Shown here piece by piece: positions 1,261 to 11,242 of a stretch of 14,371 nucleotides of DNA (position 1 is the first letter of the stretch; every line of letters starts with the position of its first letter). The DNA is taken from the NCBI GenBank assembly GCA_046483985.1, contig JAWOCD010000076.1:1-14371 (forward strand), given 5' to 3'. The translations under genes were made by a program, and so were the position numbers. The notes beneath the pieces are model-generated. The model was not told the origin of the DNA. It was given only the letters and a program-made list of their open reading frames with translations, and made no database searches. The stretch is from Promethearchaeia archaeon (GTDB lineage: Archaea; Asgardarchaeota; Lokiarchaeia; Sigyniarchaeales; SOKP01).

Positions 1261-4107
1261 TTAAATCTTATTGATATTCCTTCTATATTTTTCTAACTTT
1301 TCTACATATTTATAGTAAAAGCTGTCGAAATCCTCGAGATTGCCTACTTCTATCGTACTTACGAAACTTTCGGCTATATTCACGATTTTATTGGAAAGAT
1401 CATTATACCTCTCTTTGCTCGCTTCATCATCAAAGTCCAGCGTTTTTAGTTTCCCCCGTATTTGGGCGACCAACTCATCCGCCTCTCGCAAGAATTTATA
1501 GGAAATGTCCTTTTGGCTCTCCTCTAATTTGGATTCTATCGTCTCAGTTCGCCACGTATTTATTTTCCCCCGGGCAAATGTATCAAAATTGAGCGAAATG
1601 GAATCAATGTTTTCTTGTACGAGAAAACGTAGAAATTCGGGATCGTCGGAGGGCGCTTGCCCACAGATGCCTACTTTTTTTCCGTTTTCATGGGCAATCC
1701 GGATAAGTTCTCTTACCGCCCTTCTGATTGCTCCACTGTTGGTGACGTAGTTGAATCGTTCAGCGATGGGTATAAGTTTTTCGTTATCCCGTCCAGACCC
1801 ATAAACCAGCTGAGTTAAATCATTTGAACCGATAGAAAACCCGTCAAAATAATTACAAAATACATCCGCTAAAAAGATATTAGAGGGTATTTCTGCCATA
1901 CAATACACTTTCAAGCCATTTCCACCCCTCACTAATCCGTTTCTCTTCATAATCTTTTCTATTTTATCCGCCTCTTCTGGCGTTCGACAGAAGGGGATCA
2001 TCGGTATGATATTTTTAAGCCCCCACTCTCGTGCGAGTTTAATTGCTTCTAATTCCAAAACAAAGGCATCTTGGAAATCATTAGATACATATCGCGACGC
2101 ACCGCGGAATCCAAGCATCGGGTTGTGTTCATCGCTTTCATAATACCAGCCCCCTATGAGATTCCGATATTCGTTCGTTTTGAAGTCGGACAACCGAACG
2201 ATACAAGGAGCAATGGAGCCGTCTTTCAATTCTTTCCATACCCCTGCCGCAATAGTGGCAATCCCCTCTGCTAACTTTTGCACATAGAATTTCTTTTTAT
2301 CTTCAAAACCCACAGTGATTTTTTCTATTTCATTAATGGTTTCCCGTAACTTATTAATTTCTTGATTGAAGGGATCCTTATAATAGAGTTGCGATTTCTT
2401 AATACTTTCGATCTTCATTCTCTGTTCTTTTAGCTGTTCAAGGCGGTCTTTCAATTTCTCAAAATGGATAAGGGCATTAGGGTGAATTTGGATCTCGTCA
2501 TTAATAATGAACTCCAACCGAGCTAAACCGGTGCCATCGGGATGTTTGCCCGCAGAAAGTGCACCCTTCGGGATTCCCAGATTGACGAGGACTTGGGTTT
2601 CGGTCTCGGGCAATTGATCAAATTCAATGGTATCGTAATCATATTTTACCTTCTTCGTCCAAATGCGCGGCTCTCCCTCACTACAATCGATAGTCAAGTA
2701 ATCTAAATTATCTTGTCGTTGTTTATGAGATATTGTTTCCACGATATTATCTGCGCCGACAATTGAAGCGATGTTAAGTTCTCTTGAGACGATTGCAGCG
2801 TGACACGTGGGACCGCCTCTTTCTGTAATCACCCCTCCTAAATTTTGCATATAAGAGGTCCAATCAGGATTGGTCTCTTCCGTTACCAATATATCTCCTT
2901 CTTCCAGTAAATGCGCTTGGTTAATGGATTCGATGATTTTGAATTTGCCGTGACCAATCCGTCGGCCGATTGCCGTTCCTGAGTTTTGGATATAATATCC
3001 TTCTTTAATTAATTGGTCGGGGTCTTCTAACAAATAGAAAATCTCTTCCTTATCTCCTTTTTGGCTGTGAACGGTCTCTGGACGGGCTTGCACAATATAA
3101 ATATCTTCACTGTTGTCCATAGCCCATTCAATATCCATCCGTCTTCCGTAATGTTCTCTAATTTTTAAGGCGTATTCCGATAATTCCAATACTTGGTCAT
3201 CGGTTAAACAGAATTCCATCTGCTTTTTCTCGGGAACATTTAGTATATCGACTCCCCCCTCATCTCTGTCAAAAACCATCATTTTTTCCTTTCTGATGCG
3301 ACTTCTGTTGATTATCTGGAGACCTTTTGGGTTATGTTTAAACACAATAAATTCATCTCCTTTCTCCGCTCCTTGCACAATCAATTCACCTAACCCCCAC
3401 GTACCTCGAATAACAATTACATTCGGATTTCCCGAATCGGGGTCCTCAGTAAACATCACACCGGAGCTTTTTACACCGTTCGCGCCGCCGGCCATTTCTT
3501 GGACACCAACGCTCAGTTTTACCTCGAAATGGTTGAATCCCGCACGTTCTCGGTATGCGGTGGCTCGAGTGGTAAACACGGAAGCCATATCCTTTAAGAT
3601 ATACTCCAGAACCTCTTCCTCACCGCTAATATTGAGATGGGTATCTTGTTGTCCCGCAAAAGAAGCGTCCGGCAAGTCTTCTGCCGTAGCAGAGCTCCGG
3701 ATTGCAAACGTGGACTCTTTTCCGATCTTTTCGGTCAATTCTCTATACGCATCCAAAATTTCTTCCCGTAAGATATCGGGCATTCTCGCTTGCTCAATAT
3801 GCGTTCTAATATTGGCACAGATCTTATCGACCACTTGTATAGATTTGATATCTTCTCTGTTTAGTTGGCGTGAAATACGCTCAATTTGGGTTTGGATATA
3901 ATCCTTAAGGGAAATAACCTCTCCTTTATATAAAATGTCGTTTGTTTCCAATACATAATCAAAGGCATTGGCGAGTACGGCAAATCCAAGAGGGACAGGG
4001 ATACCGAAGCTTAATAGCTCACCGAGGGAGGCGTTTTTACCGCCTACCGTGCTCACGTCCTTTGAACTTAACTCATTAAAAAATTTAATATATCTATAAT
4101 CTTTCAT
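1261..4107 (-). CDS. ppsA: Phosphoenolpyruvate synthase (pyruvate, water dikinase)
   Basis: 948 aa with VGGKNASLGE, IRSSATAEDLPDASFAGQQDT, DIEWA...QARPETV, phospho-His motif GGPTCHAAIVSRE, GLARLEF, RLSDFKTNEY, NPMLGFRGASRY, FSIGSNDLTQ and GICGQAPSD. Confidence 0.96.
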   Translation of the reverse strand: MKDYRYIKFFNELSSKDVSTVGGKNASLGELLSFGIPVPLGFAVLANAFDYVLETNDILYKGEVISLKDYIQTQIERISRQLNREDIKSIQVVDKICANIRTHIEQARMPDILREEILDAYRELTEKIGKESTFAIRSSATAEDLPDASFAGQQDTHLNISGEEEVLEYILKDMASVFTTRATAYRERAGFNHFEVKLSVGVQEMAGGANGVKSSGVMFTEDPDSGNPNVIVIRGTWGLGELIVQGAEKGDEFIVFKHNPKGLQIINRSRIRKEKMMVFDRDEGGVDILNVPEKKQMEFCLTDDQVLELSEYALKIREHYGRRMDIEWAMDNSEDIYIVQARPETVHSQKGDKEEIFYLLEDPDQLIKEGYYIQNSGTAIGRRIGHGKFKIIESINQAHLLEEGDILVTEETNPDWTSYMQNLGGVITERGGPTCHAAIVSRELNIASIVGADNIVETISHKQRQDNLDYLTIDCSEGEPRIWTKKVKYDYDTIEFDQLPETETQVLVNLGIPKGALSAGKHPDGTGLARLEFIINDEIQIHPNALIHFEKLKDRLEQLKEQRMKIESIKKSQLYYKDPFNQEINKLRETINEIEKITVGFEDKKKFYVQKLAEGIATIAAGVWKELKDGSIAPCIVRLSDFKTNEYRNLIGGWYYESDEHNPMLGFRGASRYVSNDFQDAFVLELEAIKLAREWGLKNIIPMIPFCRTPEEADKIEKIMKRNGLVRGGNGLKVYCMAEIPSNIFLADVFCNYFDGFSIGSNDLTQLVYGSGRDNEKLIPIAERFNYVTNSGAIRRAVRELIRIAHENGKKVGICGQAPSDDPEFLRFLVQENIDSISLNFDTFARGKINTWRTETIESKLEESQKDISYKFLREADELVAQIRGKLKTLDFDDEASKERYNDLSNKIVNIAESFVSTIEVGNLEDFDSFYYKYVEKLEKYRRNINKI

Positions 4108-4139: not shown

Positions 4140-4290
4140 CTAATTATAATCTTATTACTTTGAACTACTCACGCCCAAATGCGTGAGATTCATATTCTCT
4201 AATGTGTGTTTAATACATTAGACACTATAGGTTGGTTCTCCAACCGTAAATTACGGTTCTGCTTTTTTTTATATTTACGGACTATATTAA
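4140..4290 (-). ncRNA. Putative TnpB omega-RNA (reRNA) scaffold plus flank-derived guide
   Basis: It overlaps the tnpB-like 3' coding remnant and the right end, as TnpB omega-RNAs do. Stems on + coordinates: 4168-4174/4181-4187, 4198-4205/4215-4222, 4230-4235/4240-4245 and 4242-4248/4252-4258. The guide would begin at 4159 (AGTAATAAGATTATAATTAG). The 5' boundary is approximate and expression is not shown. Confidence 0.55.
4141..4151 (-). promoter_or_regulatory. Candidate archaeal TATA box of ppsA
   Basis: The minus strand reads GATTATAATTA, with the TTATAA core at 4144-4149, about 37 nt upstream of the ppsA ATG (4107). The AT-rich context makes this uncertain. Confidence 0.4.
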
Positions 4291-4314
4291 TGCTAAGGTA
4301 TTAGTCCGAAGCAT
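4199..4314 (-). pseudogene. tnpB: tnpB remnant (N-terminus fused out of frame to C-terminal tail)
   Basis: The ATG at 4314 gives MLRTNTLALI*, resembling TnpB N-termini of the MxRTxxF/L type. A second frame from 4294 gives SINIVRKYKKKQNRNLRLENQPIVSNVLNTH* (stop 4201-4199), matching the tail after the TnpB RuvC-III motif DxNG(A/S)xNIxRKY. Both matches are short and are supported mainly by the flanking IS ends. Confidence 0.6.
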
Positions 4315-4341
4315 TGTATAATTATAAGTTAGATATTGATC

Positions 4342-4351
4342 TATTTAAATA
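4342..4351 (-). promoter_or_regulatory. TATA box inside the miniature element (former tnpB promoter)
   Basis: TTTAAATA on the minus strand (4349-4342, inside the palindrome TATTTAAATA) ends 28 nt upstream of the remnant ATG at 4314. This spacing fits an archaeal leaderless or short-leader transcript. Confidence 0.55.
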
Positions 4352-4523
4352 TATGGTCTTAAGAAATTTAGGAATTGAAACGCAGAATTCATCTCCATCC
4401 TAAGGTGTGAAATTTTTTTTTTGCTTTCTGATAAGACTAAAACTATATACAACAAAGAGAAAAGAAAGAGAATGTAGAATAATTATCATCTAAAATAATG
4501 GAAATTTTAAGGAATTAAGAAAT

Positions 4524-5144
4524 TTAATTGATGGTACGGATCCGTCCCTTTTCAAACTTGAAAGTCTCACGGGATTGTTGAATCCGGTTATCTTGGAGCT
4601 GATACAAAATAACTTCAATGGGATTTTCTTTATAAATGAGTACTTGAATAAATGCGGGGGTCTCAGTTGCCAAAAAAGACCACGCACCTGTAACACTTCC
4701 CGGATTTAATAATAATACGGCTTCTTTCGTTAAATAGATTTCTTCTTTGTGAGTATGCCCCGAGACTAAAATGTGAGAATCACGTTCCAGTGCCAACTGC
4801 TCTAACTGCGAGTGATTTCCGCGATCTTTAATCTGGGCTCCATGCGTGAGCCCTATTCTCAACTCCTCCCCTGTGGCAAATGGGATTTCCAAATACTCCA
4901 TTTTGGGGGCATTCCTATTTCCGCCATAATAATCCATATTTCCGAGTACCCTTAAAACCTCTTCTTCCGTCTTAGAGTTTAAAAAATCAATAAAAGTTGG
5001 GGATTCTATAAGATCTCCGGTAAATAAAATATGATCAAAAAGGGAATCTTTGGTTAGATTATCTATTTCCTCCAGGATCGGATCGGGAACTTCTTTTGCC
5101 CTTTTCGGTATGTGGGAATCTCCTAATACCAATAATCTCATCAT
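4524..5144 (-). CDS. Vps29/MJ0936/YfcE-family metallophosphoesterase
   Basis: 206 aa with the calcineurin-like motifs GDSHIP, FTGDL, VLGNMD, GLTHG, VSGHTH and LNPGSVTG. It starts 13 nt after the tyrS stop, so the two are probably co-transcribed. Confidence 0.9.
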   Translation of the reverse strand: MMRLLVLGDSHIPKRAKEVPDPILEEIDNLTKDSLFDHILFTGDLIESPTFIDFLNSKTEEEVLRVLGNMDYYGGNRNAPKMEYLEIPFATGEELRIGLTHGAQIKDRGNHSQLEQLALERDSHILVSGHTHKEEIYLTKEAVLLLNPGSVTGAWSFLATETPAFIQVLIYKENPIEVILYQLQDNRIQQSRETFKFEKGRIRTIN

Positions 5145-6404: not shown

Positions 6405-9119
6405 TTAATTTTCACGGTTTTCTAAGATGACTGCTTGGGCTGCTGCTAGTCTGGCAACGGGAATTCTAAAAGGCGAGCATGAAACATAATTTAAGCCTAT
6501 ATCATGGCAAAATATAACTGAGCTTGGCTCTCCACCATGCTCTCCACAAATACCGCATTCCAAGTCGGGCTTTACCTCGCGGGCTTCTTCAATCGCGAGT
6601 TTCATTAACCTCCCGATTCCGTTTTGATCTAATACATCGAACGGATTTTCCTTGATAATACCCTCTTCTAAGTAAATAGGGAGAAATTTGCCTTCCACAT
6701 CATCCCGCGAATAGCCAAATGTCATCTGCGTGAGATCGTTAGTTCCAAATGAGAAGAACTCCGTTTCCTCTGCAATTTCAGCGGCGGTTAATGCTGCCCG
6801 TGGGACTTCAATCATGGTGCCGAAGTTATAATCCAAATCCACTCCGTAATCTTCGATGATATCACCGGCAAGCTTCTCAAATCCTTCTTTGACATAGATC
6901 AATTCATTGACCATTCCTACTAACGGGATCATTACTTCAACTTTAACATCCACACCCTCCCGCTTTAGTTGGCAAGCGGCTTCAAATATTGCTCTCACCT
7001 GCATCTCATTAATTTCGGGCCAAGTGATTCCTAAACGACAGCCTCTTAACCCCATCATGGGGTTTTCTTCCGACATCGATCGTATCTTGGCTATCAATTG
7101 TTTTTTTTTCTCTATCTGATCATCTAATGTGTTCGAGTTAAGGAGTGTTTTTGCGAGAGAATTGGTCATCGTTAATTCTTGATGCTCCAATCGCACCGTT
7201 TCTAAACTAGGCAAGAATTCATGGAGAGGTGGATCCAATAACCGAATAGTGACCGGTTTTCCCTCCATTGTTTTTAAAATTTCGTAGAAATCGTTCCTCT
7301 GCATCGGAAGCATCTCTGCTAAAATTTTATCCCGATTTTTCCTGTTTTCAGCCATTATGAGCTCATGAATCGCCCAAATTCTTCCCTTTTCCATAAACAT
7401 ATGCTCAGTCCTCACCAGACCGATTCCTTCCGCTCCGAATTCGAGCGCGTTTTGTGCATCTTCGGGCGTGTCAGCATTTGCTCTTACTTCTAGTTCTCGA
7501 ATCTCATCGGCATAGCTAAGAAGTTTCGTAAAATCTCCTCGCAATTCCGGTTCTTCCAGAGGCATCTTACCCTCATATATCTTTCCCGTAGTTCCGTCAA
7601 TCGTGATATAATCTCCCTCTTCAATAACGGTATTATCTACTTTGAATAACCGGTTATCTAAATCAATTTCAATCTCTTTTGCTCCGACCACTGCGGGAAT
7701 TCCCATTCCTCTGGCGACTACTGCGGCGTGCGATGTTTTTCCTCCAAATTGTGTCAAAACTCCTTTGGACGAGTATAGCCCATGAATGTCATCAGGTCGA
7801 GTTTGCGGTCTCACCAAAATAATATTTTTCTGCGGACTTCCCCCCATCTCAACATCTTTTGACTCCATTTCCACGGCTCTATCTGCATCAAACACGGCTT
7901 TCCCAACCACGGCTCCCGGAGAGGCTTTAATTCCTTGAGCCAATAACTTCGTTGCGGTGAACGCATCCTCACTAATACTCTTAAAGAGCAAGTTGGAAAT
8001 AATCTTTGGATCGATTGCCATGATTGCCTCTTCTTTCGAAATTAAGCCTTCTTTTACCCTATCTACAGCAATTTTAACCGCTGCTGAAGGGGTCCTTTTT
8101 CCCGTTCTGGTTTGTAATAAGAAGAGTTCCCCATTTTCAATTGTGAATTCAATATCCTGCATGTCTCGATAGTGTTTTTCAAGTTTCTCCATGTATTCCA
8201 TCAGTTCATTGTACACATCCGGGAATTCATCTTGCATTTCGTTCAGAGTTTTGGGCGTCCTAATTCCGGCAACGACATCCTCTCCTTGGGCGTTCGGAAG
8301 ATATTCGCCGAATCGCTTTTTCTCTCCGGTGGAGGGGTCCCTCGTAAAGGCGACTCCCGTTCCTGATTCCCAATTTTTATTGCCAAACACCATAGATTGC
8401 ACATTGACCGCTGTTCCCGTGTTCGGCAGTTTATTCATCTTCCGATAGGTTTTTGCCCTTTTGTTATTCCATGAGTCAAAAACCGCCTCAATTGCCAAAA
8501 AGAGTTGTTTTTTCGGATCTTGCGGAAACTCTTCGCCCAACTCCTTTTTATAAAGGACTTTATAGTCGGCGATGATTTTCTTCAGATCCTCAACAGTGAG
8601 ATCCGTATCTTGGGTGTCCGGGCCTTTTAATTTCTTATAATTATCTAAGATTTCTTCGAATTTCTCAATATCAATATGCATCACCACTTCCCCGAACATC
8701 TGAATGAACCGTCTGTACGCATCATAGGCAAAACGAGGATTATTAGTTTCTTCTGCTAATCCTTCCACCGCTTTATCGTTTAGCCCGAGATTAAGGACCG
8801 TGTCCATCATGCCGGGCATAGATACCGGCGCTCCGCTTCGCACACTCAGTAGCAATGAATTCTTTTCGGCGCCAAACTTTTTTCCTGTCTTTTTCTCTAA
8901 TTCATCTATGTGTTTCAAAATATCAGGTCTGATGGTATCCATAAAATCTGAATCCTTAAAGTAATCGAGGCATGCTTCAGTAGTTATCGTAAACCCCGGC
9001 GGGATGTTAAGGCCCAAATCCGTCATTTCAGCGAGATTTGCCCCTTTTCCGCCGAGCAGTTTCTTCAGTTCTTTGTTTCCTTCTTCAAACGTATAAATAT
9101 ATTTTTTTTTGTCTGACAT
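6405..9119 (-). CDS. ppdK: Pyruvate, phosphate dikinase
   Basis: Motifs LLGGKGANLAEM, SVRSGAPVSMPGMMDTVLNLGLN, NAQGEDVVAGIRTP, LQTRTGKRT, phospho-His GGKTSHAAVVARG, RTEHMF, IRLLDPPLHEFLP, FSFGTNDLTQ and GICGEHGG. The ATG at 9119 is preferred over the TTG at 9125. Confidence 0.97.
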   Translation of the reverse strand: MSDKKKYIYTFEEGNKELKKLLGGKGANLAEMTDLGLNIPPGFTITTEACLDYFKDSDFMDTIRPDILKHIDELEKKTGKKFGAEKNSLLLSVRSGAPVSMPGMMDTVLNLGLNDKAVEGLAEETNNPRFAYDAYRRFIQMFGEVVMHIDIEKFEEILDNYKKLKGPDTQDTDLTVEDLKKIIADYKVLYKKELGEEFPQDPKKQLFLAIEAVFDSWNNKRAKTYRKMNKLPNTGTAVNVQSMVFGNKNWESGTGVAFTRDPSTGEKKRFGEYLPNAQGEDVVAGIRTPKTLNEMQDEFPDVYNELMEYMEKLEKHYRDMQDIEFTIENGELFLLQTRTGKRTPSAAVKIAVDRVKEGLISKEEAIMAIDPKIISNLLFKSISEDAFTATKLLAQGIKASPGAVVGKAVFDADRAVEMESKDVEMGGSPQKNIILVRPQTRPDDIHGLYSSKGVLTQFGGKTSHAAVVARGMGIPAVVGAKEIEIDLDNRLFKVDNTVIEEGDYITIDGTTGKIYEGKMPLEEPELRGDFTKLLSYADEIRELEVRANADTPEDAQNALEFGAEGIGLVRTEHMFMEKGRIWAIHELIMAENRKNRDKILAEMLPMQRNDFYEILKTMEGKPVTIRLLDPPLHEFLPSLETVRLEHQELTMTNSLAKTLLNSNTLDDQIEKKKQLIAKIRSMSEENPMMGLRGCRLGITWPEINEMQVRAIFEAACQLKREGVDVKVEVMIPLVGMVNELIYVKEGFEKLAGDIIEDYGVDLDYNFGTMIEVPRAALTAAEIAEETEFFSFGTNDLTQMTFGYSRDDVEGKFLPIYLEEGIIKENPFDVLDQNGIGRLMKLAIEEAREVKPDLECGICGEHGGEPSSVIFCHDIGLNYVSCSPFRIPVARLAAAQAVILENREN

Positions 9120-9321
9120 CTTCAATTTCCCTTTATCGATTTAAGGTCATTAATTTTTTTTAACAAAATAAGTTCTTAATATAATATCTATAATACACCC
9201 TCGAAAATAAAAATTCTGGTCTTACAAATTATAGATATGGACGAATTTGTCGTAGTTTTAACTTGCTCTTAAATATCAAATATAAATATAAATATGAATT
9301 TTTACTGATTAATATGGCGAG

Positions 9322-10444: not shown

Positions 10445-11242
10445 TTATAGAATTGGCAAAAGATCCCATAATCCCTCTATTACAAAATCCGGTCGGTAGT
10501 CGCTTGCTTTGAGGGCGGTTTGATCGGTTTCCCCGGACAAGACGCAGCACGTGGTAATGCCAGCTTCGAGGCCCATCCGGATATCGGTGTACAGTCTATC
10601 CCCGAACATGACGGCTTTCTCACGCGGGAGATCCAGTTGGCGTAACTTAAAGAGCAGCATCTCCTTGTTTGGCTTCCCGAATATCTGCGGTTTGCGGTCG
10701 GTGGTTTTGTACAGCATTGAAATGAAGCCGCCGACGTCAGGTATGTAGCCCCTTTGGGTGGGGCAGCGATCATCGGGATGGGTGGCGATATAGGGGATTC
10801 CGTCTTGCAACAAATAGGAAGCTGTGACGAGTTTTTCGTAGGTCAGCTCTTGATCAAAGGCCAGCACGAGAATTTCGGGGTCCTCGTCGGTCAGGTGAAA
10901 TCCCTTCCGCGTAAATTCGTGCTTCAAAGATGTAGTGCCCAACAGAAAGATCTTCTCATAGCCGTTTTCTTTCAAATATTGGATCGTGGGATGTTGGGAG
11001 AGGATTATGTTCCTTTCGGTCACGTCAAGGTTCAAGCGGGTCAGTTTCTTTAAATAATCCTTGGTCGATCTGCTGGAATTATTAGAGAAAAAAAAGAAGT
11101 CTTTCCGTTGCGTTTTTAGTTTTCCAATTACCTCTAATATTCCGTCAAAAAGATGGTCCTCTAAGTATACCGTTCCGTCCAAATCAAAAAAGAATGCTTG
11201 TTTCTCGCGAAGTATTCGTAATTCCTCATCGGGAGTGATCAT
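10445..11242 (-). CDS. HAD-IIA family hydrolase (NagD-like phosphatase)
   Basis: 265 aa with motif I FDLDGTVY, motif II SNNSSRS, GKP and motif IV GDRLYTDIRMG. Confidence 0.93.
   Translation of the reverse strand: MITPDEELRILREKQAFFFDLDGTVYLEDHLFDGILEVIGKLKTQRKDFFFFSNNSSRSTKDYLKKLTRLNLDVTERNIILSQHPTIQYLKENGYEKIFLLGTTSLKHEFTRKGFHLTDEDPEILVLAFDQELTYEKLVTASYLLQDGIPYIATHPDDRCPTQRGYIPDVGGFISMLYKTTDRKPQIFGKPNKEMLLFKLRQLDLPREKAVMFGDRLYTDIRMGLEAGITTCCVLSGETDQTALKASDYRPDFVIEGLWDLLPIL

Follow-up and report, generated by a model that had tools for sequence, protein, structure and literature searches.

A miniature element between two host genes

The window (the whole stretch of DNA analysed, 14,371 nucleotides) carries a 271-bp element on the minus strand, set between a metallophosphoesterase gene and a gene of the PEP synthase family. 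Its parts and neighbours, in minus-strand order, are as follows.

4524–5144, minus: upstream host gene, metallophosphoesterase, ending 93 nt ahead of the element
4431–4435, minus: insertion motif (TAM) on the host side, CTTAT here against TTTAT in the family
4160–4430, minus: non-autonomous IS200/IS605 element, 271 bp (palindrome-associated transposable element, PATE, with standalone omega-RNA), delimited by BLASTN copies, a shared junction and sharp ends
4422–4413, minus: A10 run near the left end
4413–4416, minus: left-end DNA guide AAAA at the hairpin foot, fitting target TTAT by the IS608 pairing rule
4393–4412, minus: left-end hairpin, eroded relative to a perfect family consensus
4342–4349, minus: TATA box that belonged to the tnpB promoter, located 35 nt ahead of the ATG
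4293–4314, minus: first 22 nt of tnpB, MLRTNTL, with the ATG at 4314
4292–4294, minus: deletion junction, 4293/4292, with AG microhomology (2 nt), placed by comparison with parents
4199–4294, minus: tnpB C-terminal remnant, 31 residues including SINIVRKY, in another frame than MLRTNTL
4230–4245, minus: omega-RNA stem 1 with GAAC loop, 6/6 pairs retained
4193–4227, minus: omega-RNA long stem, 10/11 pairs retained
4160–4191, minus: right end (GAAT guide, hairpin and TTCAA cleavage motif), as in the family right ends
4191–4188, minus: GAAT guide
4187–4168, minus: right-end hairpin, 7 bp, 7/8 consensus pairs
4164–4160, minus: TTCAA
4144–4159, minus: predicted RNA guide in the host flank, within the region upstream of the PEP synthase gene
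1261–4107, minus: downstream host gene, PEP synthase family (ppsA-like), start codon 52 nt past the element

All minus-strand features named in a preliminary description (TTAT, TATA, ATG-MLRTNTL, the SINIVRKY tail, GAAT and TCAA) are found in the sequence. The junction, which it had put near 4295, exists but falls at 4293/4292 within the shared AG, and the right-end hairpin, called perfect, is paired along its 7-bp stem but lacks the eighth pair present in the family consensus. The fused frame from the ATG at 4314 reads MLRTNTLALI and stops after 10 codons. Fold z-scores of the element against shuffles are −4.8 (DNA) and −5.0 (RNA). The left end is eroded, as first described: besides the A10 run, the hairpin at 4412–4393 has 4 Watson–Crick pairs, 2 G–T pairs and 2 mismatches, with 4 substitutions relative to the consensus, all in its 5′ arm. 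Because this hairpin is broken, the copy is plausibly immobilised.

Elsewhere in the window, the PEP synthase-family gene (1261–4107) and a pyruvate phosphate dikinase-like gene (6405–9125) share a strand and lie 2.3 kb apart, and a HAD-type hydrolase-like gene (10445–11242) contains a 55% GC stretch within the 38% GC window and was possibly acquired.

Parent elements encode TnpB only

Full-length homologues of 414–437 aa, all in other genomes, begin with MLRTNT and end in a tail matching that of the miniature, which identifies both peptide fragments as TnpB termini; they carry the Pfam domains OrfB_IS605 and Cas12f1-like_TNB. The 31-residue tail is 43% identical to residues 385–414 of one of them, P0002 (E 5e-6 for the pair). 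Parent ends match those of the miniature, the stop codon stands 39 nt ahead of the right end in all parents and in the 4160–4430 copy, and the parent loci seen have no adjacent tnpA. In the miniature, tnpB codon 7 is fused to the element's final 133 nt; going by parent lengths, this took out about 1.14 kb of tnpB. The existence of parents with the same architecture and termini bears out the tnpB deletion proposed earlier. We confirm that the 4160–4430 element derives, by internal deletion, from a tnpB-only (IS1341-type) IS200/IS605 element of Promethearchaeota, and the Asgard host suggested in the preliminary description holds. TATA-to-ATG spacing in the parents is 30–33 nt, which suggests a leaderless or short-leader transcript.

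In IS608 the left-end guide pairs with the target motif, and the parents and the miniature fit this rule. Guide tracks target in the parents, AAAG occurring with TTTAC and AAAA with TTTAT, and the sister IS605 of the same genome has left guide AAGT with TTTAA; the guide/motif matches are thus AAAA/TTAT, AAAG/TTAC and AAGT/TTAA, with GAAT/TCAA at the right end.

An alignment of ten parent TnpB proteins (A1, P0001–P0010) has invariant Asp202, Gly295, Glu348 and Asp381. With Gly295 in place of the usual RuvC-II glutamate but an invariant Glu348, the parent protein appears, from its sequence, to resemble the rearranged RuvC-II site of TnpB2 (PMC10530073).

Alignment-based scanning recovered the parent loci, whereas a locus scan with an internally deleted protein from contig C74 recovered none, and the viral contigs searched contained no parent. 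Also on C74 (G000, L031:178–666), an element of the sister subfamily bears an in-frame internal deletion giving a 162-aa TnpB fusion. Many parents (L067–L091) have 8 bases around the tnpB start codon that are complementary to 8 bases at the GSI codons; the deletion cuts inside the GSI-side arm of this complementarity, and compensatory change was not seen there.

An old, dispersed family with one junction

BLASTN against the element's own genome (4.06 Mb in 128 contigs, 97% complete, repeats collapsed in assembly) returns dozens of matches, up to E 1e-88, which end at 4160 and about 4430. Seventeen span the junction, with unrelated flanks (6 or 7 of them end to end), giving a family of about 16–17 copies with one common junction. 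Right ends finish in TTCAA and pass into unrelated sequence, nearly all left ends are preceded by TTTAT, target duplication is absent at the left ends, and shuffled end patterns give 0 hits; the sharply bounded, multi-copy family that had been predicted is present. The element is missing from all 29 orthologous loci of other genera, where a different upstream gene lies within 1.5 kb or the sequence ended too soon. This absence and the dispersed BLASTN copies reject ordinary conserved ppsA upstream DNA as an account of the locus.

Copies diverge from their consensus by 5–14% (10% for the 4160–4430 copy, among the more diverged) and from one another by 6–20% or more, in a mostly star-like pattern with a few small sub-lineages. 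Copies of the sister IS605 in the same genome are 97–100% alike. Since the junction-sharing copies are so much more diverged than these, the deleted form itself transposed, and did so long ago. One copy (L107, G000:C24:95700–96023) has a tandem triplication of about 38 bp in its 3′ part, and another locus (L175, G000:C95:36838–37040) holds a third kind of miniature element, ~210-bp, whose ends are similar and whose scaffold is richer in GC.

About a dozen other deletion forms occur in the genome, of 108–432 bp and in one copy each; only the 271-bp form, with promoter plus scaffold, was amplified. An alternative account is that the minis are pure debris: the omega-RNA region would have come along as a neighbour of the right end, chance timing would have let the mini amplify, and no TnpB would ever have used the RNA. 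Deletion series are common in this family (PMC3119063), in keeping with such an account; TnpA requires terminal hairpins only, yet the 108–193-bp forms that keep both ends stayed single. Taken with the scaffold and the relatives considered below, we hold this account to be unlikely, though it deserves serious weight.

The position of the 4160–4430 copy raises a different alternative, that it was domesticated to regulate the PEP synthase gene or to serve it as an additional promoter. Its end lies 52 nt from that start codon, it has the same orientation and a TATA box, and in 12 of 13 scorable copies the gene downstream runs in the direction of the element. Against this, orientation bias is expected under lagging-strand insertion, the element is absent from the 29 orthologous loci, and the copy's 10% divergence is among the larger ones. 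At the occupied site, moreover, the guide match comes after TTCAA rather than a TAM, so TnpB should not bind there. Domestication is accordingly very improbable.

The omega-RNA scaffold is retained

The 3′ ends of 17 parents share covarying stems, with 93% of cells paired and 12 double-change pairs against 5.4 in shuffles, a figure inflated by kinship of the sequences. The GAAC loop of stem 1, almost invariant, can pair with the terminal GTTC in a candidate pseudoknot, whose columns vary so little that covariation cannot prove it. An RNA model built from the parents only scores the 4160–4430 copy at 82 bits over all 141 positions and matches 57 places in its own genome. This copy keeps 6/6 pairs of stem 1, 4/4 of the pseudoknot, 10/11 of the long stem and 7/8 of the right hairpin; with the TATA box, it has retained promoter and whole scaffold, as the preliminary description had it. 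Rfam gave no relevant match for the element. A second candidate, a conserved pseudoknot across the junction, was not supported: 8 of 15 copies have its first helix complete, and its second is fully Watson–Crick in the 4160–4430 copy only.

Substitution patterns within the family bear on the debris account from both sides. Raw rates are flat (4–10% outside the left-end arm), with stems no lower than spacers, as debris would have it. Base-normalised private substitutions in the two RNA stems number 11 where 17–20 are expected (P 0.016–0.07, from several tests on small numbers), a deficit that weakens to P 0.07 once the comparison is confined to the 3′ part; neither the right hairpin nor relics without the junction have such a deficit. 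Conservation of the scaffold is, on these figures, suggestive only.

Miniature families in relatives

The same IS has two more multi-copy mini families, one of about 210 bp (G003) and one of about 190 bp (G003, G015, G023 and G070); each retains its left and right ends, the TATA box and the scaffold. Their loci are as follows.

L160, L164, L169, L171, L178 and L180 (G003): ~210-bp family, with left end, TATA box, short tnpB tail and scaffold
L162 and L165 (G070); L159, L163, L166 and L174 (G015); L167 (G023); L173 and L181 (G003): ~190-bp family

The ~190-bp family spans two genera and four genomes; its copies are 59–95% alike, with the columns of a predicted 78-nt scaffold as their most invariant part. 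In 9 of 10 copies the TATA box stands 31 nt ahead of the first G of stem 1, the same register as the 30–33 nt between TATA box and ATG in the parents. G070 has three intact cognate tnpB genes, and G003 a tnpA with an open frame.

That these two families keep promoter and scaffold, and that the TATA register of the ~190-bp family fits stem 1, weighs against debris and argues for promoter-plus-scaffold minis as a real recurring design; on the same grounds, the 271-bp family probably worked as such a mini while its TnpB existed.

Guides and present activity

The preliminary description had gone further and raised a distributed guide-RNA system, in which the minis form a dispersed guide library that currently works for a TnpB encoded elsewhere; that of the sister IS605 is a possible candidate. 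The 4160–4430 copy has the equipment for this (stem 1, the pseudoknot pairs, 10 of 11 long-stem pairs and the TATA box are intact), the genome holds a recent IS605 whose tnpB frame is open for at least 409 codons, and standalone omega-RNAs can act in trans according to the summary in PMC10691335. The sister TnpB is, however, distant from the cognate one, differing in its 3′ region and in its motif (TTTAA), and intact cognate tnpB was not found in the assembly, where its pieces, most of them lying well away from contig ends, cover at most about half the protein. When 13 flank guides were matched against the own genome, allowing 1 mismatch, none hit next to a TTAT, the same result as for shuffles, and the guide of the 4160–4430 copy has no exact viral match. 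Every tnpA copy in the assembly has a frameshift or a deletion or runs off a contig end; with 128 contigs and collapsed repeats, the assembly could hide an intact tnpB or tnpA. Given also the 5–14% divergence of the copies, the proposed working system did not hold up, and we consider a present-day guide library improbable. The 271-bp family now looks dead, and the 4160–4430 copy is most likely a relic.

The recent IS605 (tnpA plus tnpB, motif TTTAA) lies on G000 contigs C97, C116, C96, C74, C68, C4, C76 and others, mostly at contig ends.

A proposed history

These observations are drawn together in a history to which we assign a probability of about 0.75. One internal deletion in a tnpB-only IS200/IS605 element joined codon 7 to the last 133 nt, and the 271-bp product retained the entire omega-RNA scaffold together with the tnpB promoter and the two ends that TnpA binds. 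A Y1 TnpA supplied in trans would then have copied the mini to at least 16 TTTAT sites, where the copies and their ends are observed; the TnpA donor was most likely a co-resident IS605 with similar ends. While cognate TnpB was present, each copy probably gave an RNA of ~160 nt plus a flank guide, and TnpB carrying this RNA would cut the mini's own empty site, favouring retention of the mini. The parent would since have decayed into the fragments now seen, leaving the minis as ageing relics; the 4160–4430 copy may still be transcribed, most likely with no protein partner.

A broader reading is tentative, and we put it a little below even odds: this Promethearchaeota IS family would have repeatedly given rise to minis that are double parasites selected for promoter and omega-RNA, using a borrowed TnpA for movement and a borrowed TnpB for the defence of their sites, and the ~190-bp family, with a transcript predicted to start exactly at stem 1, would mark a natural minimal scaffold of about 78–86 nt for an Asgard TnpB with an apparently rearranged site.

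As annotation, the 4160–4430 element is ordinary, one more PATE; what makes it valuable is the natural experiment it offers. Should promoter-plus-scaffold deletion forms be the only ones that spread, this supports the proposed TnpB-guided retention in trans of elements that carry no gene. A further use of the minis is that they mark the 5′ border of the scaffold, pointing to a compact Asgard pair of TnpB and guide (P0002 and relatives; TAM TTTAC or TTTAT). The noteworthy parts are the design, which recurs, and the natural scaffold, which is short; the concept of PATEs and standalone omega-RNAs is itself known.

Relation to known systems

The 4160–4430 element was rightly described as a miniature IS200/IS605 element: it has subterminal hairpins at both ends (the left one perfect in consensus), inserts 3′ of a fixed AT-rich motif with no target duplication and with a variable right flank, carries guide tetranucleotides that match the cleavage motifs, encodes no transposase, occurs in several dispersed copies and shares its ends with a full-length parent. 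Lacking terminal inverted repeats and target duplication, it is not a MITE in the strict sense. Its conserved structured scaffold, with a candidate pseudoknot, reaches the right end as in standalone omega-RNAs. In the same assembly compatible TnpB was found only as fragments, although a draft could hide a copy, and the genome and viral sequences searched gave no TAM-adjacent guide target besides its own empty site. A PATE with standalone omega-RNA is an already described class; a limited literature search turned up no account of this family from Asgard archaea.

The PATE class was established in Haloquadratum (Dyall-Smith et al. 2011, PMC3119063). Compared with those, the present family has an Asgard host, retains promoter and start codon, arose by deletion through a 2-nt microhomology where theirs involved a long palindrome repeat, and consists of copies older than their >90% 'homogeneous' PATEs. 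PATEs often encode omega-RNAs for use in trans (Meers et al., bioRxiv 10.1101/2023.03.14.532601), and mobilised standalone omega-RNAs functioning in trans have been reported (Altae-Tran et al., as summarised in PMC10691335). Like these, as far as that summary describes them, our element consists of ends and omega-RNA, has no effector or transposase and would need TnpA and TnpB in trans; theirs are accompanied by a compatible effector in the genome, whereas in our case the assembly yielded no intact one and the RNA is predicted.

The closest parallels in detail are with IS608 and ISDra2 (PMC10097598), which share the GAAT guide, the TCAA/TTCAA right end and left-end guide–target pairing, and with the ISDra2 omega-RNA, in which a GAA loop pairs with a terminal UUC in a pseudoknot. 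The TAM is TTTAT or TTTAC here, in contrast to theirs, and, counted from stem 1, the scaffold measures about 86 nt (78 nt in the sister mini family), compared with 116 nt for ISDra2 (PMC10097598). Unlike ISDra2 TnpB, the parent TnpB of this Asgard family apparently has a rearranged RuvC-II site (PMC10530073).
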